Source of the DNA: a virus
DNA length: 64,000 nucleotides
Direction: 5' to 3' (one strand)
IMG/VR virus record: IMGVR_UViG_3300033149_003004
Span: 18,656 to 82,655 of that record
Part shown: positions 2,999-46,516 of the stretch, piece after piece
Layout: the number at the start of each line of letters is the position of its first letter
Numbering within the stretch: position 1 is the stretch's first letter
The notes under the pieces: generated by a model
What the model saw: the letters and a program-made list of their open reading frames with translations, nothing else
What the model was told of the DNA's origin: nothing
The model's database searches: none
Program-made: the position numbers and the translations under genes

Positions 2999-4659
2999 TG
3001 TCCGAAGCTCTGGCCAAAGCGATTCGCAGGACATCGGCGATTGCATCACTTGCATTTGCATCGACCAGACAGGTTGGAGGAAGTTCTGGTGCCATTGATC
3101 TGGTCCCGTCCGATATGGCGTCCGGTTTGGATTCTTGGCAGAAGCAACAGGCGTATGCCCATCGCTACAGTCAGATGCGGGGCTGGGTATATTCGGCGAT
3201 CAACGCTCTGGCCAGTGAAGCGGCTGGGCAACATGCAGTCGTGGCCCGATTGAGTGGGGTGAAGCGGGAGCAGAAACCGAGAGGAAGCAAGCTCCTAGAA
3301 TTGACTCGTATGCCGCTGTCGACGCGGAGAAAGGCGGCTGAGCAGGAATACGAGATTCAGAGGGATCATCCTTTGGTGGATCTGTTGGAAAGACCCAACC
3401 CGATTCAAGAGCGATGGCAATTCGTCTATTCCTTTGTCGCTAATTTGGTGATCACTGGTTGGGCATACATTGTGCTTGGCAGGGCGAAGGGCAAGGACGG
3501 GAAGCTGGAGATGTACAGTCTCCCGACAACGTGGGTTAAACCTGTGCATGATAAGGGATCGTTCTCGTCTTTCGAGGTACGGAATCCGCGGGCAACGGGA
3601 GTGGAGCCGGCCATGCTGGATAGGAGTCAAGTGGGGTTTGCTCATTTACCGAACCCTGGTGATCCGATGGCGGCACTGGCTCCGGCGTCGACTCAAATGA
3701 TGGCGATCCGAGTAGACGATCACATTCAGACTTCTCAGGAGGCGTTCTTTCGGAACGGTATCTTCCCGAGTGTGATCATCACGATGGGTCAAGGGCCGTA
3801 TCAAGACACAAAAGGGAGGCCAGTATTGACGGGGGCCCAGCGCCGGCAGATCAACTTGGCTCTGAAGAAGCGGTGGGTTGGGGATGCGAATCAAGGAAAC
3901 GCCGCGATCATCGATGGCCTGATTGACAAAATTGAGCCTTGGTCCGTTTCGCATCGAGAAATGGGTTGGGAGCGTAGTGAGGAGAAAGTGAGGACACGGA
4001 TTCTCAGTGCATTCGGTGTCCATCCGTTCATCCTGGGAGAGGCTGTCGGAGTGGGAGGGTATGCCCAGGCCGTGATTATCCAGGAGCGGTTCCACAAGCG
4101 AGTGAACACATACTTGGAGATGCTCGGTAATCTGTTGACGAACTTGCTTGGTGGATTGGATGAAAGCGAGCGGATGATCGTTTGGTTTGAGCAATGCCGG
4201 GCTAGCGACAAATCGTTAAGGCAGACTTTGTTGCAATTCATGCGTTCCAATGGAGATATTTCGCAGAATGAGCTAAGAGCCGAGGCTGGCTTTCCGCCGG
4301 ATGAGGATTTGAATCAGGCTGTGATTCAGCCGAGTATGATGGCGGGGATTGCTCAGTTTCTTTCGCTGCTCGGAACTGGGCAGATGCAACGAGAACAAGC
4401 TGTTGTCGCTTTTGAGCTTATGGGCCTACCTTCCGGAGAGGCAGAGAAGCTTGCAGGTATGGGCTTGCCCAAGGCTGAGCCTCAGCCTCTGTTGGAAGGG
4501 CCAAAGCCGTCGAGCGAGGAAGAAAAACTGGGGGAAGAAGAGAAAAGCGAGGAGGCCATGGAAGAGCTGAAGATGGCAAACCTTCTGCTGGCCAGAGCGA
4601 TGGAAGCGTCCGAATGGCAAGCGGAGCGGATCTTGAGGAGTGTCGAGTGCTCTTGCTGA
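2995..4659 (+). CDS. Portal protein (HK97 family)
   Basis: VYSAINALA, HPLVDLLERPNP, FFRNGIFPS, ILSAFGVHP, ISQNELRAEAGFPP motifs. Confidence 0.92.
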   Translation: MMSEALAKAIRRTSAIASLAFASTRQVGGSSGAIDLVPSDMASGLDSWQKQQAYAHRYSQMRGWVYSAINALASEAAGQHAVVARLSGVKREQKPRGSKLLELTRMPLSTRRKAAEQEYEIQRDHPLVDLLERPNPIQERWQFVYSFVANLVITGWAYIVLGRAKGKDGKLEMYSLPTTWVKPVHDKGSFSSFEVRNPRATGVEPAMLDRSQVGFAHLPNPGDPMAALAPASTQMMAIRVDDHIQTSQEAFFRNGIFPSVIITMGQGPYQDTKGRPVLTGAQRRQINLALKKRWVGDANQGNAAIIDGLIDKIEPWSVSHREMGWERSEEKVRTRILSAFGVHPFILGEAVGVGGYAQAVIIQERFHKRVNTYLEMLGNLLTNLLGGLDESERMIVWFEQCRASDKSLRQTLLQFMRSNGDISQNELRAEAGFPPDEDLNQAVIQPSMMAGIAQFLSLLGTGQMQREQAVVAFELMGLPSGEAEKLAGMGLPKAEPQPLLEGPKPSSEEEKLGEEEKSEEAMEELKMANLLLARAMEASEWQAERILRSVECSC

Positions 4660-7127
4660 CCGACCGTCGAAAGCCGAGTATTGTTCAAATTCGCCGAAAA
4701 CTCACGGCCGTCCGCCGTCGCCGGTTTGAGCTGGCTGCGAAAAGCATGCGTCTGGTGCAAAAGGTGGTGGCTAATCGGCAGTTTATGTCCACCGAGCGGG
4801 AAGTGACGAAAGCTCTTATCCCGTTTTTTGTCGAGCAGGGACGTTCGATGGCTGCTCGGCTGCGGAGGATTGAGCAGAAGACTGTAGAGAATCTATGGAC
4901 GAAACGGACTTCTCTCGGCTCTGCTGCTGGCTTGATTCAGCTGATCTTTGATCCAAAAGAATGGCGTACCAATCTGACAAATCGTTTGTTGCCGGTACTA
5001 GCCCGAAAGATGGCAGAAGCTGGCGTGGCCCACCTGATGACGCTGGGAATCGACGTGCGGAGAAAGCAAAGGAAGAAGGGATTGAAGACCACTACTGCTG
5101 CGGATTGGGCTGAGGAGAACATTGCCGATTGGGATTCGCTTGTCGAGGCTTTTGAAGCTTCTAATCTACCAATGGGAATCATGAACGAGATTCCTACTTG
5201 GATGCAGGAGAGCATCGCTGAGAGACTCTCTGAGAGTTTTGCCGAAGATTACTGGGATTCGATTAGCAAGACGACGATGGGGGATGCCGAGAAAGTCTTG
5301 CGGCAGGGATTATCTGAAGGATGGTCGATCGGTGATATGGCTGGAGAGCTACGGCAGTATTTTGAGGAGGGAGGGTTTCGATATGCCCGACGCCGGTCGG
5401 AGAACATCGCCAGAACCGAGTCCGGGAATGCTCTGAACGCTGCTAGGAAGGGCAGCGTCGCTCGACTTCAGCAGGAATTGGGACCTGAAGTGCCGATGAA
5501 ACAATCGTGGCTTTCCGTGCTAGGCATTACAACGCGAGACACACACGCGGAGCTGGATGGTGTACCGGAGAATGAACGAGGAATGTGGGTCTTATCCGGT
5601 TACGAGATACCGTGGCCCGGACATATTAGCTTGCCTCCTTCGGAGCGCTGCAATTGCTTCCCTGCTGGAACGTTGGTGTCAGGAGATTTTGTCGGGGCGC
5701 AGAGAGCGTGGTACGAGGGGACATTCACCGAAATCATAACTGGCTCTGGGAGGAGGATCACCACAACCCCACAGCACCCAATAGTGACCTTGGAGGGACT
5801 TGTTCCGGCAGGCGAGGTCAAGCCAGGCCAGAAGGTCTTGGCCTATCGTCCGGAGGCTGATTTGCCGTCGGTGGTGGCTTCCCGTGGCGATGATGTAAAG
5901 AACGAACCAGTTGCGGTCGAGCAGCTTTTTGAGGCGTTTCTTGCCGGGACGGTTGCCGCCTCGTCCAGCATTGAAGTCAAACGCGCTCAGGTGGACGATT
6001 TCTATGGCGATGCGAAATCCTTTCAGGGCGATATCGAGATTGTACGGGCCAACTGGGGCCTGTTGGACGATGGGAAATTCGGCCAGTTTGAGAAACGTGG
6101 CAATTCTGTCCTCATCTGTGTGGATTCCGGTTTGGTTTTGGAATTTAGAGATCGCTCTTTTGGCCTTGCGTCTGGTCGGATCGGATCGTCCCCTTCTAGC
6201 GGTCCACGCCTTGCTGAGCCACTGCTTAGCTGCCTTCGATCTATCGCCAGCATCACGCCATCGGGCTCGCTGTCCGTCGGAGTAGCTGCGGATTTCCACG
6301 TTCGCCTCGATCAATCGTTGAGACAGGACGGCCCTGGAATATCCGGTTTCCTTCGAGAGTCGTTGGAGCGGTATGCCGGATTGGTACAGTTTGATGATGT
6401 GGTCGAGGTCAGGGATTTCTATTCTGCGGGTCATGTTTACGATCTCCAAAGCCGGTGGGGATTGGTGGTTGCTTCCGATCCATTATACACTGACAATCGT
6501 TTTCCTCCTAGTGGAATTGTCGTGTCGAATTGCCAGTGCAGTCTCACGATTGAGTTTGGGATGGACCCTGCCGAAGCCATGCAGAGGATAGAGGAGTATT
6601 GGCAACATGTAGAAGAATGGGAATCGAAAGGCTACGTGTGGCCTTGGCAGAAGTACAATCCGAACCGTGATCCTGCAACTGGAAGATTTGCTCCTGGCGG
6701 AGGTGGAGATGATGGAGGTGGAGCAAGCGGAAGGGAAGAGGGAAGAGCCGAGCGGGCGAGACGCGCACATAAGACAAGCACAGCAGAGAAGCAGAGGAGG
6801 GGAGAAGCAGAGCAAAAGCGGATGGCCAAGGCAATCGGGGGTGAGAACGATGGGGATAATAAACCATTCGATGTGATCGTGGGAGGGAAGCATGGGATTG
6901 AAGTCAAGACTGTGATGGATAACAACAACGATAAGATCACCGTGCATCCTGAATCTCGCCGGCGGAAGGAAGCTGCCGCCAAAAAGCAAAAGCTAAAGAT
7001 TCACACTATAGCTATTGATATTCGTGAGGGAAAGCGATCTTATTATTACAGGGAGGGGGTTGGAGCCTTCCGCCTCAAAAATATGGAGAAAGTATCGCTT
7101 CGGCAGTTGAAGGAGAAGTTCCGGTGA
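4614..7127 (+). CDS. MuF/SPP1 gp7-like minor head protein with intein and C-terminal PD-(D/E)xK nuclease-like extension (start uncertain)
   Basis: RSENIARTES, TRDTHAELDG, ERCN/CQC MuF motifs; NPNRDPATGRF + Gly linker; KPFDV..GIEVKT. Confidence 0.88.
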   Translation: MASGADLEECRVLLLTDRRKPSIVQIRRKLTAVRRRRFELAAKSMRLVQKVVANRQFMSTEREVTKALIPFFVEQGRSMAARLRRIEQKTVENLWTKRTSLGSAAGLIQLIFDPKEWRTNLTNRLLPVLARKMAEAGVAHLMTLGIDVRRKQRKKGLKTTTAADWAEENIADWDSLVEAFEASNLPMGIMNEIPTWMQESIAERLSESFAEDYWDSISKTTMGDAEKVLRQGLSEGWSIGDMAGELRQYFEEGGFRYARRRSENIARTESGNALNAARKGSVARLQQELGPEVPMKQSWLSVLGITTRDTHAELDGVPENERGMWVLSGYEIPWPGHISLPPSERCNCFPAGTLVSGDFVGAQRAWYEGTFTEIITGSGRRITTTPQHPIVTLEGLVPAGEVKPGQKVLAYRPEADLPSVVASRGDDVKNEPVAVEQLFEAFLAGTVAASSSIEVKRAQVDDFYGDAKSFQGDIEIVRANWGLLDDGKFGQFEKRGNSVLICVDSGLVLEFRDRSFGLASGRIGSSPSSGPRLAEPLLSCLRSIASITPSGSLSVGVAADFHVRLDQSLRQDGPGISGFLRESLERYAGLVQFDDVVEVRDFYSAGHVYDLQSRWGLVVASDPLYTDNRFPPSGIVVSNCQCSLTIEFGMDPAEAMQRIEEYWQHVEEWESKGYVWPWQKYNPNRDPATGRFAPGGGGDDGGGASGREEGRAERARRAHKTSTAEKQRRGEAEQKRMAKAIGGENDGDNKPFDVIVGGKHGIEVKTVMDNNNDKITVHPESRRRKEAAAKKQKLKIHTIAIDIREGKRSYYYREGVGAFRLKNMEKVSLRQLKEKFR
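5679..6434 (-). CDS. HTH + Vsr/DUF559-like endonuclease encoded antisense inside the MuF intein
   Basis: N-terminal HTH (IIKLYQSGIPLQRLSKETGYSRAVLSQRL); EDRIATFL..QQAPVGPYNLDIA..IAIEI..LLDRNWFVLYI; GGAG RBS before ATG 6434 (ORF track starts at TTG 6449). Confidence 0.8.
   Translation of the reverse strand: MTRRIEIPDLDHIIKLYQSGIPLQRLSKETGYSRAVLSQRLIEANVEIRSYSDGQRARWRDAGDRSKAAKQWLSKAWTARRGRSDPTRRKAKRAISKFQNQTGIHTDEDRIATFLKLAEFPIVQQAPVGPYNLDIALKGFRIAIEIVHLSAFDFNAGRGGNRPGKKRLKKLLDRNWFVLYIIATGSHHRRQISLRTIGQDLLAWLDLACRNKSLQGHYWVLWGCGDPPPRASYDFGECPLVPRSLRPDKIS
6482..6511 (-). promoter_or_regulatory. Putative promoter for the antisense endonuclease (CTAGGAG-N17-TATAAT)
   Basis: Minus strand reads CTAGGAG gaaaacgattgtcagtg TATAAT, 48 nt upstream of ATG 6434; same architecture as 8377-8406. 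Confidence 0.55.
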
Positions 7128-7396
7128 GCTATTGGCTAGAAGACGATAGTGGGAAGTGGCTTGGTGATTTGGCTACCAATGTTGGCATCGTAGAGTTGCG
7201 AGAGGCTGGGAGTCCTTCGCTGGTTGAATTTCTGGATGCTGGAGAAGCGGACGAGGAATTGGTTGAGAGAGTGATCATCGAGACGAGGAATTTACCAGAA
7301 GTTGCTTACATAGCAGACATGATGGAAGGGGTGAAGCCACCGATCCGCGTGACGGATGGATGCGGAGAGGCAGAGGATTTGGAGGAGGAGGCATGA
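7124..7396 (+). CDS. Small acidic protein, candidate immunity protein for the MuF C-terminal nuclease
   Basis: Overlaps the MuF stop (GTGA); very D/E-rich versus the K/R-rich nuclease domain. Confidence 0.5.
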   Translation: MSYWLEDDSGKWLGDLATNVGIVELREAGSPSLVEFLDAGEADEELVERVIIETRNLPEVAYIADMMEGVKPPIRVTDGCGEAEDLEEEA

Positions 7397-8532: not shown

Positions 8533-9333
8533 ATGAATGTCACTTTCTTTTTGGGTCATGCTAGTGGGGCTCTACTGAGCCGGACCTTGACGATCACCCG
8601 TATGCCTAGGGCCGGGGATACACTACCGATCACCCCGCAGTACGGCCCGGCAAATGTGGGAGCAGCGACGCAGATCATTACGGTATCACTGCCCCCAAAC
8701 CAGATATGGCAGGCGAGATTGGATGATGTCACGCTCGCGGGAAATACGAATGCTCCTCCGGCGATTCTGAACTTTCACACCGGATCACTACAATTCCCCG
8801 GGCCGCGAGAGAAGGAAGACCTGCGATTGCAAATCCTCCACATGGAGGAACAATCCAGCTCGTCCAGTTCCAGTTCGGTCAGCAGTGAGAGCAGTTCGTC
8901 GTGGTCGAGTCATTCTGCGAGTAGCGAGAGCAGTTCCAGTAGTGCTTCGAGTGCATCGAGCAGCTCTTCGAGTAGTAGCTCCAGTAGCTCGTCAGCCACG
9001 TCTAGCTCCAGTAGCTCCAGCAGTTCTTCGGCTACATCCAGTTCCAGTAGCTCTTCGGCTACATCCAGTTCCAGTAGCAGTTCTGCCACGTCGAGTAGCA
9101 GTTCCGAGAGCAGCGTGAGTAGTAGTTCCAGCAGTAGCTCTTCGGCTACATCCAGTCCCAGTAGTGCTTCGAGTGTATCGACCAGCTCCAGTAGCTCCAG
9201 TAGCTCCAGCAGTACGTCGAGCCAATCGAGTGTCTCGACTAGCTCCAGCTCCAGTAGCACGTCGAGCCAATCGAGCAGTAGTAGCAGCAGCATGAGTAGT
9301 TCGTCGTGGTCGTCGCAGTCGACGGTTGCTTAG
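8533..9333 (+). CDS. Probable virion protein with ~155-aa poly-serine C-terminal tail
   Basis: GAGGA RBS; ~105-aa beta-rich domain then Ser tract with mixed AGY/TCN codons. Confidence 0.75.
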   Translation: MNVTFFLGHASGALLSRTLTITRMPRAGDTLPITPQYGPANVGAATQIITVSLPPNQIWQARLDDVTLAGNTNAPPAILNFHTGSLQFPGPREKEDLRLQILHMEEQSSSSSSSSVSSESSSSWSSHSASSESSSSSASSASSSSSSSSSSSSSATSSSSSSSSSSATSSSSSSSATSSSSSSSATSSSSSESSVSSSSSSSSSATSSPSSASSVSTSSSSSSSSSSTSSQSSVSTSSSSSSTSSQSSSSSSSMSSSSWSSQSTVA

Positions 9334-20334: not shown

Positions 20335-22221
20335 GTGGGTCTAGAGCTCGCAAAAGCGTATGTAACGGCTCGTGGCGACGTGAGCCAGGTGGCTGGCGAC
20401 TTCCATGCTGGCCGGGGACAAGTCGAGCAGGCAGCCAAATCGCTGCAACTATCTGTGAATCGCATCCTCGGGATGATCGGGATTGGGGTATCGATCGGCG
20501 CAATCATCAGTGAGATGCGACAGGGGATAGTCCTTGCCGAGAGGCAGATAGATGCCGAAGCACGCATAGCTGCTGTGGTCAAGGGCACTGGGATGGCAGC
20601 CGGCTTTACTGCCGATCAGTTGAAAGCCATGGCTAGTCAGATGCAGAGGATCACGACAGTGGGAGATGAGGAGATTCTGGAGTCGATGGGGATCTTGCTC
20701 ACGTTCAAAAAAGTACAGAGAGATGTATTCACGTCAGCCATAGATACGATACTCGATATGTCGGCTGTGATGGGCACGAACGCTCGTGGGGCAGCAATGC
20801 AGCTCGGACGCGCTTTGGAAGACCCGATTTATGGAATGACGGCCCTGCGGCGAACTGGAGTCTCGTTTAGCGAGGAGCAGAAGGATCACATCAAGCAGTT
20901 GCAGGAAACGAACAGGTTGGCCGAAGCTCAGGCTTTGATCCTAGACATAGTCCGCGGCCAGCTCGGAGACGTGGCGGAGGCGATGGCACAAACGGATTCC
21001 GGAAAGCTGAAGCAAGCACGAAACGTACTGGGTGATTTGCGGGAGGAACTTGGAAAGAAAATGATTCCGCTTCAGATGAAGTTTGTCGAAATGCAGCAGA
21101 AGTGGATAGGACTCCTGATGAAGGCTATAGAGGTGGTAACAAGTATTGGCAGCAGGGTCAGGGAATGGCTATCTACGCCGTTTGGTGTCTACTTGACGAA
21201 CATGGCCAAAACGGTATTTTTGGGTGGGCTTGTATTAGCAGGGACTTGGGCGTTAGTGTGGGCTGCTGGAGCTATGGCCGGAGCTTTCACCGTTGCTTGG
21301 ACTTCTGCACTCGGTCCCATTGCGTTGCTCATACCTGCCATGGCGCTTGTCGGAGTAGCTATAGTCGAGCTTTGGGGGAAGGGTGACACGTTTGGGGAGA
21401 AGATGAAGGATGTATTTGAGAACAAGATACCAGACGCTATAGATGCAACGGCATTTGCTGTACGAAACTTCAGCATGATCATGGAACTTGTTGCTGTGCG
21501 ATGGTCAATCAAACTATTAGAGTTGTTCGGCGGGTTGTACGAAAAGTTCTGGGAGATAGTTCCTGTGTTCGCCGGAGTCTGTGCTGGAATGAGAGCTGCC
21601 TTCGGTGCTGTTATCGACTGGATGGCCAACAAAGTTCTCAGTTTGAAGAACATCATGGCTGCCGTGGGAGCAGGCATCCAGGCGATGTTCGTTGCGGTCT
21701 TGTCTGGAAATCTTCGGGGGGCCGCCGTCGAATTCGGAAAGGCTTTCGACGCTGCAATGGCCAAAGTAGGTGCTCCTCCCAAAGTGGACATAGCTGCTCG
21801 TTTGAGAACAGCTTTCAAGATCACAGAGGATATCGTCAAGGCGATGATCGTTGAGTTAGGCATGGATGATGCACAAAAGATGCTCGACATTCTCAGGGCT
21901 AGAGAACAAGCTCTGCTTGAAGCGATAGCAAGAATGGAGCTGGAGAGAAAGAAAAAGAAGGAAGATGAAGACAAAGAGGATAAAAAGAAACCATCGCCGG
22001 AGAAAGTAGCAGAAGCAGTAGCAGAAGCCGAGCGGTCGATGGCCGGACGATACGGATTCCTGGAGTATAGTAGGGCATTGCAGGATATGTTGCTTACGAG
22101 AGACGATTCTGCGAAGAAGACAGCCGAGAACACGAAGAAGGCAAATGAACAATTAGAAGATGCAAATGCAAAGTTGGCGAAGCTAATCGAAGTTGGTAAG
22201 GGACCAAGCGTCTTCGTGTGA
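20335..22221 (+). CDS. Tape measure protein
   Basis: ELAKAYV start, QLGRALEDPIYGMTALRRTGVSF, Ala-rich helices, hydrophobic segment. Confidence 0.9.
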   Translation: MGLELAKAYVTARGDVSQVAGDFHAGRGQVEQAAKSLQLSVNRILGMIGIGVSIGAIISEMRQGIVLAERQIDAEARIAAVVKGTGMAAGFTADQLKAMASQMQRITTVGDEEILESMGILLTFKKVQRDVFTSAIDTILDMSAVMGTNARGAAMQLGRALEDPIYGMTALRRTGVSFSEEQKDHIKQLQETNRLAEAQALILDIVRGQLGDVAEAMAQTDSGKLKQARNVLGDLREELGKKMIPLQMKFVEMQQKWIGLLMKAIEVVTSIGSRVREWLSTPFGVYLTNMAKTVFLGGLVLAGTWALVWAAGAMAGAFTVAWTSALGPIALLIPAMALVGVAIVELWGKGDTFGEKMKDVFENKIPDAIDATAFAVRNFSMIMELVAVRWSIKLLELFGGLYEKFWEIVPVFAGVCAGMRAAFGAVIDWMANKVLSLKNIMAAVGAGIQAMFVAVLSGNLRGAAVEFGKAFDAAMAKVGAPPKVDIAARLRTAFKITEDIVKAMIVELGMDDAQKMLDILRAREQALLEAIARMELERKKKKEDEDKEDKKKPSPEKVAEAVAEAERSMAGRYGFLEYSRALQDMLLTRDDSAKKTAENTKKANEQLEDANAKLAKLIEVGKGPSVFV

Positions 22222-45014: not shown

Positions 45015-45025
45015 GAGGCTAGCTA

Positions 45026-46516
45026 ATGAGTAGAATAAGAAAGCTCACACCAGAGCAAGAGGAGGCCATACCAGAATGGCTAGATCGATATTGGAAGATC
45101 GGAACTTGTACCGACCCGACTGACAAGAAAACCGTTGCCAGTGTACTAGCTGACATGTACCGGCTTATCTCAGAAAAACCCCCCTTACCCATATGGTGTG
45201 ACTCGCCACTGACTAGTTGCTTGGCCATATCCATATTGAAGGCAGGATCACCAGAAAAACCACTCGGGGATTCGCTCAGGGATTCGCTTTGGAGTCCGCT
45301 CGGGGATTCGCTCTGGAGTTCGCTCAGGGATCCGCTCTGGAATTCGCTCAGGGATTCGCTCTGGAGTTCGCTCAGGGATTCGCTCTGGAGTTCGCTCTGG
45401 AATCCGCTCTGGAATCCGCTCTGGAGTTCACTCGGAGGTTCGCTCAGGGATTCGCTCAGAAAGTCATTCGGAAAGTCACTCGGATATCCGCTCGGACGTT
45501 CACTAAGACACTCGCTCGGGCATTCACTTAGGCATTCGCTCTGGATGTCACTTAGGCATTCGCTCTGGATGTCACTTGCAAACTCATTTGAGGAGTCGTT
45601 CGGGGATCCACTCAGGCATTTACTCGGGGGCTCGCTCGGATATTCATCTGAGCATTCGCTCGGGACTCTGTTTGAGAGATCGCTAGGACTTTCGCTTTGG
45701 AGCTCATTCGGGCATTCGGTTTGGGATTCGCTTAGGAATTCGCTTGGGGATTTGTCCGGGGAATTACCCCAGAGAGCATTCTGGGGCTCCACCAATGCAT
45801 TTTGGCTTTGCCTGTACTCGTTCTGCAGATGGATTGGAGTCCAATACACGGAAGAGAGTTGCGCCAAGCTTGATTTACAAGAGCGATTGGCCCGATCATC
45901 ATTCTGGATCTGGCCATACACAAACTACTGCATTGTATCAGCAAGGCCATCGGAATTACATTGGACACGGCCTTTCGGTGTCCTGCACCGAGATGGCGGA
46001 CCTGCTATAGCCTTTCGCGATGGCTGGAAGTTCTGGCTACTGAACGGAGTTCATGTTCCACAATGGCTAGCCGAACAACGAGACATCGAAATCGATCCCA
46101 AGCGGATTGCAGAATGCGATAATGCCGAGGTACGTAGAGAATTCGTGCGGAAGGTTGGGCTCGACAGAATCTATCACAAGCTTGGCGGCAAGGTGATTCA
46201 CGAGCGGACAGTATATCTCAAGACTCCATACAACGAGCATTGGCCTTGTCACTACAAGCTAGTTGACCTAGCGTATGCAGAAGGCGTGTTGAGGCGGGTG
46301 TTAGAAATGCCAAACCCGTCGCTGCCTGGAGTCAAGCACGTAGAATATGTGCCGAACGAATGTGAAACAGTGGAGCAGGCAATGAACTTCCGCTTGAATC
46401 GAACAGAAAACCAGGTCGATGACGAAGCGGGAGTTGAATGGTATCTGCATGGGGATGTTATCGTTACTCCAAAGAGAGCCACCAGTTTCAAGCGGTGGCC
46501 GGAAAGGATCGCATGA
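45026..46516 (+). CDS. DUF6745-like protein with SLxx tetrapeptide repeats
   Basis: KLTPEQE start; SLRDSLWS repeats; LHRDGGPAIAFRDGW, NAEVRREFVRKVG. Confidence 0.75.
   Translation: MSRIRKLTPEQEEAIPEWLDRYWKIGTCTDPTDKKTVASVLADMYRLISEKPPLPIWCDSPLTSCLAISILKAGSPEKPLGDSLRDSLWSPLGDSLWSSLRDPLWNSLRDSLWSSLRDSLWSSLWNPLWNPLWSSLGGSLRDSLRKSFGKSLGYPLGRSLRHSLGHSLRHSLWMSLRHSLWMSLANSFEESFGDPLRHLLGGSLGYSSEHSLGTLFERSLGLSLWSSFGHSVWDSLRNSLGDLSGELPQRAFWGSTNAFWLCLYSFCRWIGVQYTEESCAKLDLQERLARSSFWIWPYTNYCIVSARPSELHWTRPFGVLHRDGGPAIAFRDGWKFWLLNGVHVPQWLAEQRDIEIDPKRIAECDNAEVRREFVRKVGLDRIYHKLGGKVIHERTVYLKTPYNEHWPCHYKLVDLAYAEGVLRRVLEMPNPSLPGVKHVEYVPNECETVEQAMNFRLNRTENQVDDEAGVEWYLHGDVIVTPKRATSFKRWPERIA
45260..45760 (+). repeat. 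12-nt periodic coding repeat
   Basis: TCGCTCnGGnnn units encoding SLRD/SLWS/SLGH. Confidence 0.85.

Follow-up and report, generated by a model that had tools for sequence, protein, structure and literature searches.

A phage gene for a MuF-like head protein, found in the 64,000-nucleotide stretch of viral DNA analyzed here (hereafter the window), is interrupted by an intein whose presumptive mobility enzyme is encoded not in frame, but by a separate gene on the opposite strand. The favored reading, to which a probability of about 0.8 is attached, is that the locus is a mobile element carried on two strands, consisting of a contiguous intein that is spliced out of the MuF protein and a separate antisense gene for a homing nuclease. 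The antisense open reading frame is a real gene, judged on sequence comparison and modeling, and its product has a predicted HTH part followed by a predicted Vsr-like nuclease core.

The host gene (4614..7127, plus strand) encodes an 837-residue precursor of a MuF-like head morphogenesis or minor capsid protein, which matched Phage_Mu_F (PF04233) over residues 226-318 with 31.5 bits against a cut-off of 29.6, and the PHROG head-protein family phrog_15127 with E = 7e-29. The intein (292 residues; 5655..6530, plus strand) interrupts the conserved MuF motif PPxxxN|C(R/Q)C, with junctions reading ERCN|CFPAGTLV at 5655 and GIVVSN|CQC at 6528-6530/6531, and alignment of the host proteins showed that this insertion site is common to all 20 related MuF genes. 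The nucleophile Cys1 lies at 5655 and block B carries T38-P-Q-H41 (TPQH) at 5766-5777; Cys1 and the block B T-x-x-H are conserved over the 20 related loci, with Ala1 in three loci. The intein ends in Asn292, which is followed by Cys+1 of the extein, and its penultimate residue is Ser, not His. Against the Pfam family Intein_splicing (PF14890) it scored 25.6 bits (E = 1.2e-5), under the gathering score of 35.8, and the related loci scored 21-34 bits; the Pho RadA intein was a weak match.

The N-terminal splicing region, comprising blocks A and B (intein residues 1-66; 5655..5852, plus strand), lies opposite nuclease residues 195-251. The C-terminal splicing region (6369..6530, plus strand), delimited by the host alignment, contains the strands before block F, block F itself (GHVYDLQ, 6429-6449), an insertion between blocks F and G (segment SDPLYTDNRFPPS, 6474-6512) and block G (GIVVSN, 6513-6530). 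The F-G insertion had been called unusual in the sequence-only reading, and the host alignment showed it to be present in close relatives only and missing from distant ones. Between the two splicing regions, at the position of the endonuclease domain in canonical inteins, are about 172 residues of sense-frame 'filler' (5853..6368, plus strand) that are stop-free but poorly conserved as protein; no Pfam match was found for the filler, and no in-frame endonuclease was found in the intein. The intact blocks, together with a frame that is kept open, suggest that the intein splices the host protein.

The antisense gene (5679..6434, minus strand; 251 residues and a stop) runs from an ATG at 6434 to a stop at 5681-5679, with an alternative TTG start at 6449, and lies entirely within the intein in exact codon register with the plus frame. 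The sequence statements first made about this frame all checked out. The ATG is formed opposite the His codon of block F and the TGA stop opposite a Ser codon (TCA) of block A, and the overlap with the splicing regions amounts to approximately 22 codons at block F and 57 at blocks A-B. From the model and the profile matches, the HTH modules were assigned to residues 2-100 (6135-6431, minus strand) and the Vsr-like nuclease domain to residues 102-242 (5709-6131, minus strand). A GGAG ribosome-binding site (6444..6447, minus strand) is located 9 nt upstream of the ATG, opposite the block F Leu-Gln codons, and GGAG or GAAG occupies the same place in close relatives. A candidate promoter (6482..6510, minus strand) falls within the F-G insertion and comprises TATAAT (6487-6482), a 17-nt spacer and a poor -35 element, TAGGAG (6510-6505), which agrees with the -35 consensus at 2/6 positions. 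Both signals were thus present where they had first been reported. The -10-like hexamer is kept at -53 to -59 in eight close loci, two of which have TTGACA-N16 upstream of it, while a sigma-70 consensus scan of 5300-6900 called no promoter. The earlier claim of a dedicated promoter therefore keeps its -10 element and loses ground on the -35 element and the scan, and a candidate promoter for the nuclease gene is what the signals suggest.

The antisense protein alone gave no Pfam match at E ≤ 1 and none in a PDB sequence search, and its matches in PHROGs and NCBIfam were weak and stray. Seven close homologues (34-66% identity) were found, within a family that counts 1,172 cluster representatives at E ≤ 1e-3, or 419 at the stricter E ≤ 1e-10. 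The family profile matched, in the PDB, the DUF559 structure 3hrl (E = 1.3e-4) and I-Bth0305I (3r3p; E = 2.9e-3), and Pfam matches among 77 family members were to PF18741 (REase_MTES_1575) in 46, HTH_58 in 31 and DUF559 (PF04480) in 22. AlphaFold2 performed poorly on the single sequence (pLDDT 41), and with the 77-sequence family alignment it gave a model with pLDDT 92.8 and pTM 0.80; all structural comparisons are based on this alignment-based model only. The structural Z scores of the nuclease model, which are close to the usual background best of 7-8 for the tool and are backed by the sequence-profile matches, were 9.5 to I-Bth0305I 3r3p (96/98 residues), 9.0 to DUF559 3hrl (rmsd 2.0) and, for residues 102-242, 8.8 to Vsr 1cw0. 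The HTH part gave Z values of 6-6.7 to Tn3 resolvase and Tc3. A Foldseek search of the model against the PDB returned nothing at E ≤ 0.001, with 3r3p still ranked at the top. The HTH and Vsr/DUF559-like domain originally proposed is borne out by these profile and model comparisons and, with the comparative evidence below, so is the description of an intein that lacks an in-frame endonuclease and has its nuclease as a separate antisense gene.

Four residues, E108, D134, E145 and R167, are conserved clade-wide and all four are present in the window copy. The His and the second Asp of the EDxHD/Vsr active site were not conserved in the 77-member alignment, and the clade does not carry the composite EDxHD motif (E, D, x-H, D), R167 being conserved instead. 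The missing DG..H residues, from which uncertain activity had been concluded, are indeed missing; this is a trait of the whole clade, however, and not decay of this copy. Because the active-site His and second Asp are not conserved in the clade, the chemistry of the nuclease may be a different one, or the protein may be limited to nicking or to binding DNA.

A comparison of homologous loci, as had been proposed, found both frames retained. In 21/21 related loci (25-63% nuclease identity) the nuclease lies inside a longer open frame on the opposite strand, in register 0; most of these opposite-strand frames match Phage_Mu_F, Intein_splicing or both, and by alignment the insertion site in MuF is the same in all of them. 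The 21 nuclease genes contain zero TTA, CTA or TCA codons, where 1.5-22 per gene would be expected (joint P about 1e-42, a value that, like the other locus statistics, is rough since related loci are counted as independent), and it follows that the intein frame is translated through. On these codon counts, the sense frame is selected to stay open and the intein is translated as one piece.

Constraint is also visible on the other strand. Across most of nuclease residues 13-198 the nuclease frame is the more conserved of the two, and across residues 199-251 the intein frame is. In the filler region, mean BLOSUM values ranged from -0.45 to 1.65 in the host frame and from 0.3 to 3.2 in the nuclease frame; two exceptions fall at +5949-6035. 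In block B, the Val/Ile codon is GTA or ATA in 18/21 loci against a background of 14.7% (P = 9e-13, rough in the same sense), Thr as ACC and Asn as AAT are far above background, and together these biased codons yield a G-x-Y-x-V-I-x-G strand of the nuclease on the antisense. The position of TPQH and this codon bias confirm that the frame overlaps block B and is double coding, as had been asserted. Judged on these statistics, this is true dual coding, in which both strands are constrained and the nuclease frame dictates which synonymous codons block B uses. When the block B shadow motif was written as a strict regular expression, it matched only 80/154 proteins and proved too strict to be of use. 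The AT skew of the intein interior, at -0.31, is the lowest of the whole 64 kb and approximately 3.5 sd under the mean; a region at 36-37.6 kb retained plus-strand skew. A second possible antisense gene at 45019-45921, considered for its low AT skew, gave no family match.

It could be that the minus-strand frame is a chance 'shadow' produced by codon bias, and that the similarity among homologues mirrors intein conservation on the other strand. The window does contain several other antisense frames of 260-314 residues in register with real genes, so the length of the nuclease frame alone is not beyond chance; in addition, conservation over the last 50 residues of the nuclease is lower than in the intein frame opposite, and the family motif is in part block B read in antisense. 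Those other frames have no family matches, however, whereas the nuclease frame has 1,172 relatives, a fold modeled at pLDDT 92.8 and HTH and Vsr/DUF559 matches in both profile and structure; the minus frame is the better conserved over most of residues 13-198, the synonymous codons of the intein are bent toward it and the AT skew flips. The case for the nuclease gene rests on homology, fold, composition and codon statistics, not on its length, and a chance shadow is barely credible. The statement that this is the only convincing minus-strand gene of the window is plausible, the other long minus-strand frames being without family matches. The locus could also be construed as a 'fractured' gene, a layout in which split inteins have a free-standing Vsr-like or GIY-YIG endonuclease gene between their halves (Dassa et al. 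2009, PMC2677866); two MuF polypeptides with split-intein halves would then be joined by trans-splicing and the open plus frame would be incidental. Vsr-like endonuclease genes are known in just this position in phage genes (PMC2677866), the window likewise has a free-standing Vsr-like gene, equipped with its own translation signals, where an endonuclease would be inserted in a phage-gene intein, and the middle of the sense frame resembles featureless filler. In fractured genes, however, the host is split into two frames and the endonuclease is co-oriented with it and flanked by a stop and a new start, neither of which is seen here: the host gene is a single open frame over 4614-7127, the intein frame is continuous with an antisense endonuclease, and the plus frame is open over the nuclease gene in every one of the 21 loci. 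As the complete avoidance of sense-stop codons is understandable only for a frame that is translated through, a fractured gene is very improbable.

A further alternative is that the antisense protein, though conserved, has ceased to be a homing endonuclease or has never been one. It might instead regulate through DNA binding, nick DNA, or work as a nuclease on the phage's behalf, for instance against phages infecting the same cell. Standard homing-cycle theory expects an endonuclease to decay after fixation, whereas the frame is intact in every locus, and a role other than homing would explain such long vertical persistence. The nonconserved catalytic His and Asp of the Vsr/EDxHD enzymes fit this alternative as well. 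The extein and intein identities to relatives are similar and show no sign of recent intein transfer, which is consistent with the two having diverged in parallel. A MuF N-extein query in viral contigs found no relatives, and three distant family members (P0040, P0065 and P0017) found no viral loci when used as queries. Against a non-homing role, the acidic residues aligned with the metal-binding Asp and the conserved Glu of DUF559/I-Bth0305I are invariant or nearly so, as are E108 and R167, and all members examined are housed in inteins that share a single insertion site, a hallmark of homing elements. For two such intein groups, sporadic, transfer-like distributions are described in a recent preprint (bioRxiv 10.1101/2025.01.02.630785). 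A non-homing role is unlikely on balance.

Under the favored reading of a two-strand mobile element, the intein would occupy the best-conserved motif of the phage's MuF head-morphogenesis protein, and the whole plus frame would be translated, with the approximately 172 middle residues serving only as a stop-free linker. The Hint domain would then splice MuF back together, as its intact blocks and the conservation of the frame suggest. The mobility enzyme would be the separate 251-residue minus-strand gene in exact codon register, whose resolvase/Tc3-type HTH modules may recognize the site and whose Vsr-like nuclease, of the PD-(D/E)xK superfamily, may cut it. Its translation would begin from the GGAG-N9-ATG embedded in block F, and its transcription probably from the -10 element in the F-G insertion, which would make it independent of late head-gene transcription. 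By analogy with I-Bth0305I and other homing endonucleases, the enzyme would cleave, near the NCRC codons, MuF alleles of co-infecting phages that lack the intein, and the intein would be copied in as the break is repaired.

The layout is not new: full inteins with antisense VSR-like endonucleases in actinobacteriophage minor capsid proteins are already described by Gosselin, Arsenault and Gogarten (bioRxiv 10.1101/2025.01.02.630785), and the window locus is a new example. The two share a contiguous intein, an in-frame middle without recognizable fold and an antisense endonuclease frame; the endonucleases likewise have a Vsr-like core, a long helical N-terminal part and kinship to 3R3P, and minor capsid (MuF-like) proteins are among the hosts. 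Unlike those examples, the window copy belongs to an uncultivated phage of 82.7 kb that has direct terminal repeats, and its nuclease is only about 26-30% identical to the Gordonia copies. The preprint places the antisense frames outside the splicing domain and does not discuss promoters, whereas the window frame overlaps both splicing regions, with codon-level evidence of two-frame selection, and has a candidate -10 element. Older precedents, dated 1998-2002, are the antisense LAGLIDADG endonucleases in inteins, such as the Synechocystis DnaX intein (Gorbalenya 1998 and Gogarten et al. 2002, as cited in bioRxiv 10.1101/2025.01.02.630785), where a homing endonuclease likewise lies on the strand opposite a complete intein, but with a LAGLIDADG fold. 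The best structural match, I-Bth0305I of the EDxHD family (PDB 3R3P; PMC3239194), resembles the window nuclease in pairing a DNA-binding region at the N-terminus with a Vsr-like catalytic domain at the C-terminus and in being tied to self-splicing elements in phage genes; it differs in being encoded on the sense strand of a group I intron, in its NUMOD motifs and in an E-D-x-H-D set that includes the His and second Asp (PMC3239194).

A bolder proposal, tentative and given slightly under an even chance, is that the whole clade, at over a thousand 50%-identity clusters, exists only as the antisense partner of MuF inteins. The two would form a co-evolved two-strand element, with the nuclease start wired into block F (ATG opposite His, GGAG opposite Leu-Gln), the last Vsr strands co-encoded with blocks A-B and the F-G insertion supplying the promoter. 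If true, few sets of fully nested antisense pairs that encode two folded domains on the same bases would be as large or as old as the clade, and this clade-wide reading would go beyond the placement of such frames outside the splicing domain in the preprint. The element in the window offers a clear natural case in which about 750 bases encode two proteins on opposite strands, with selection measurable on both frames down to synonymous codons in a catalytic intein block. It also supports the view that inteins gain mobility by capturing free-standing endonuclease genes. The practical value lies mainly in annotation, and perhaps in the supply of new site-specific nucleases and compact inteins.

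The element has been systematically overlooked by annotation. A tblastn search with the nuclease picked out 41 records of cultured phages in which it lies opposite a gene annotated as MuF or minor capsid. The hosts include Gordonia, Pseudomonas, Vibrio, Escherichia, Cronobacter and others, Pseudomonas phage vB_Pae_BR313c and Escherichia phage fEg-Eco06 are among the carriers, and the nuclease is annotated in 0/41 of the records. Fifteen of the matching records are Gordonia phages, with tblastn E values of 2e-12 to 2e-8 opposite MuF-like minor capsid genes; judged on the sequence matches, these appear to correspond to the clusters of the preprint. Gordonia phages with such an opposite-strand match in their MuF genes include Vivi2, Fosterous, Affeca, Keitabear and Sedona.

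The MuF-type head morphogenesis protein is encoded by an 837-aa ORF on the plus strand (4614..7127), which matched Pfam Phage_Mu_F (31.5 bits, cut-off 29.6) and phrog_15127 (E=7e-29). The intein of 292 residues lies at 5655-6530 (+), with an N-junction of ERCN|CFPAGTLV at 5655 and a C-junction of GIVVSN|CQC at 6528-6533, and thus has Cys1, a terminal Asn, and then Cys+1. Splicing blocks B (T38-P-Q-H41), F (GHVYDLQ), and G were identified, together with an insertion, SDPLYTDNRFPPS, between blocks F and G (6474-6512, +). The Pfam intein profile scored 25.6 bits, under its gathering score of 35.8, and a search of PDB sequences returned the Pho RadA intein as a weak match.

The sequence-only reading had placed a minus-strand gene within this intein, and an ORF of 251 aa is present there, running from an ATG at 6434 to a stop at 5681-5679 (-). 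It is fully contained in the intein, and its codons are in exact register with those of the intein. Length by itself is no evidence for a gene; antisense ORFs of 260-314 aa also overlie real plus-strand genes elsewhere in the window, and a family search of five of these other antisense ORFs placed none (0/5) in any family. Four features, namely composition, homology, fold, and identity, single out the nuclease ORF from the others. The AT skew of the intein interior is -0.31, the most negative of the 64 kb (mean +0.06, sd 0.11). GC skew there falls sharply as well, from about +0.18 to about +0.02. Such values are expected of a minus-strand gene where, as in this genome, the coding strand is purine-rich. 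Seven homologues at 34-66% identity were found in one database, and a search of a representative library yielded 1,172 cluster representatives at E<=1e-3, of which 419 remained at E<=1e-10 and 15 at E<=1e-30; the majority are 230-300 aa and match end to end.

The fold of the nuclease was modeled using AlphaFold2. The single-sequence prediction was poor (pLDDT 41), and the prediction made with a 77-member alignment reached pLDDT 92.8 and pTM 0.80. The family profile matched 3hrl, a DUF559 structure, at E=1.3e-4, and 3r3p, the catalytic domain of I-Bth0305I, at E=2.9e-3; I-Bth0305I was characterized by Taylor et al. 2011 (PMC3239194). Structure comparison of the model gave Z 9.5 over 96/98 residues for 3r3p, Z 9.0 with an rmsd of 2.0 for 3hrl, and Z 8.8 for Vsr (1cw0; model residues 102-242), while residues 2-46 matched HTH domains of the resolvase/Tc3 type (Z 6-6.7). 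Among the 77 family members, Pfam identified PF18741 (REase_MTES_1575) in 46, HTH_58 in 31, and DUF559 in 22. Given these profile and structure matches, the proposed order of an HTH, a basic linker, and a Vsr/DUF559-like domain was correct.

Residues E108, Q125, Y131, N132, D134, E145, R167, and W176 are conserved across the nuclease clade and are all kept in the window protein. In alignments to DUF559 and I-Bth0305I, D134 falls on the metal-binding Asp and E145 on the conserved Glu. The Vsr/EDxHD active site includes a His general base and a second Asp (PMC3239194), and these are conserved nowhere in the clade. The replacement of the usual DG..H residues by VHLS, which had cast doubt on activity, is therefore a trait of the clade and not decay of this copy. 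The chemistry may be of the classical PD-(D/E)xK kind, with two acidic residues and an Arg or Lys coming from a helix.

Relatives of the nuclease were collected from 21 loci (19 on viral contigs, 2 on MAG contigs), at 25-63% nuclease identity. In 21/21 loci, a longer open frame on the other strand encloses the nuclease gene, in codon register 0, with both frames retained. Most of these opposite-strand frames match Phage_Mu_F, Intein_splicing, or both; several are fused to portal or variable C-terminal domains, and the MuF insertion site, PPxxxN|C(R/Q)C, is the same in all related frames. A tblastn search of deposited phage genomes located the nuclease gene in 41 records, from Gordonia, Pseudomonas, Vibrio, Escherichia, Cronobacter, Rhodococcus, and Mycobacterium phages. 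It is annotated in none of these (0/41), and in 3/3 records inspected it lies opposite an annotated MuF or minor capsid gene.

In codon register 0, any TTA, CTA, or TCA codon of the nuclease gene would put a stop in the sense frame opposite. All 21 nuclease genes contain zero such codons, where local codon usage predicts 1.5 to 22 per gene, giving a joint P of about 1e-42. This value is rough, since related loci are counted and some spurious ORFs enter the background. The sense frame is therefore kept open. A split, 'fractured' host gene is countered by this avoidance of stops across the 21 genes, and the open sense frame argues instead for a contiguous, presumably translated, intein.

Comparing the two frames column by column shows where each is the more constrained. 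Over most of nuclease residues 13-198 (+5841-6398), conservation is higher in the nuclease frame, apart from two short stretches at +5949-6035; opposite residues 199-251 (+5682-5840), where blocks A and B lie, it is higher in the intein frame. Over the first 12 nuclease codons, which oppose the strands before block F, the two are equal. The His codon of block F (CAT) reads as the nuclease ATG on the minus strand, and the Leu-Gln codons beside it likewise supply the GGAG, a placement that recurs in most loci. At block B, the Val/Ile after His-Pro is encoded by GTA or ATA in 18/21 loci, compared with 14.7% in exteins (P=9e-13), which yields Tyr in the nuclease frame; Y218 is conserved in at least 90% of the 77-member family. 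The block B Thr is ACC in 16/21 and in 14/16 cases (P about 1e-5), and the Asn is AAT in 15/17 cases (P=2e-6). Synonymous codons of block B are bent to suit the nuclease, so that the overlap with the splicing domain is more than passive, and the double coding proposed there is borne out by codon choice. The nuclease motif G-x-Y-G-V-I-x-G, found family-wide, mirrors block B T-x-N-H-P-V-x-T; in the model it forms a confident beta-strand (218-222) that is part of the Vsr superposition. Two folded domains are therefore encoded by shared bases, along about 57 codons at one end and about 22 codons at the other.

The GGAG upstream of the nuclease ATG (6447-6444, -), the candidate promoter TAGGAG-N17-TATAAT (6510-6482, -), and the F-G insertion all lie where the sequence-only reading had put them. 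A -10-like hexamer is kept 53-59 nt upstream of the ATG in eight close loci, as TATAAT in four and as TACAAT, TAGAAT, or CATAAT in the others, and TTGACA-N16 precedes it in 2/8. The hexamer sits in the F-G insertion, which only close relatives carry and which would fit a regulatory role. The nuclease gene is probably transcribed from its own candidate promoter. The -10 element is conserved among close loci, but the window -35 (TAGGAG) is poor, a consensus promoter scan of 5300-6900 reported no promoter, and the promoter is unproven. With that exception, the original observation was confirmed and its interpretation supported.

The window intein is 51-58% identical to those of a close group and 28-36% to those of a distant group, with flanking MuF extein identities of 43-68% and 26-36%, respectively. 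Intein identity tracks extein identity, the comparison shows no sign of recent transfer, and the nuclease ORF is intact over the whole identity range compared.

Vsr-like endonuclease genes lying between split-intein halves, in the orientation of the host gene, were described by Dassa et al. 2009 (PMC2677866). A survey of actinobacteriophage inteins by Gosselin, Arsenault and Gogarten (bioRxiv 10.1101/2025.01.02.630785) reported LAGLIDADG or VSR-like endonucleases antisense to full inteins, with minor capsid proteins among the hosts and structural matches to Vsr and 3R3P, and proposed that inteins were invaded by free-standing endonuclease genes; earlier antisense LAGLIDADG cases (Gorbalenya 1998; Gogarten et al. 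2002) are cited in that preprint. The window element is of the same kind, and its nuclease is homologous to Gordonia phage copies by tblastn. It is a good, well-supported case of antisense dual coding, neither new nor rare. What goes somewhat beyond the preprint, as read here, is the wide occurrence of the element outside actinobacteriophages, a codon register that never varies together with complete avoidance of stop-generating codons, and the overlap of the nuclease ORF with splicing blocks under dual selection.

The intein-bearing MuF relatives differ in their C-terminal domains, which include NUDIX (locus L003), ADP-ribosyltransferase (L007), an anthrax-lethal-factor-like/M90 metallopeptidase motif (L010), and topoisomerase IB (L006), a pattern consistent with MuF carrying cargo domains that vary. 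In the window, the MuF protein continues past its MuF domain and intein (6651-7396 region) with a linker rich in Gly, then a basic C-terminal domain, and a 90-aa acidic ORF (7124-7396) overlaps the stop of the gene; Pfam matched neither the basic domain nor the acidic ORF, and the layout resembles MuF polymorphic toxin and immunity pairs. Two related loci carry the same intein in giant portal-MuF fusion ORFs (L015:3689-7825 (-) and L018:3381-7790 (-)), the former with DUF5661 and a 2'-5' RNA ligase/Acb1-like (anti-CBASS) domain between portal and MuF. The inteins of loci L008/L009 and L019 begin with Ala instead of Cys (AIAADSIV, AVLGNQLC), retain the terminal Asn and Cys+1, and may represent a different splicing class.

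Plus-strand genes of the window are overlain by many antisense ORFs that are long (up to 314 aa; e.g. the antisense ORF 21189-22133) but have no family matches, and antisense ORF length is a poor gene criterion in this genome. A 300-aa minus ORF at 45019-45921 covers the N-terminal 268 residues of the plus-strand ORF 45026-46516, whose sole family match, DUF6745, begins at residue 269. The minus ORF had no match in a family search, the AT skew nearby is -0.24, among the lowest of the window, and the ORF may be either a second antisense gene or a product of chance. The lowest GC skew of the window, at ORF 8533-9333, is due to very long poly-serine tracts.
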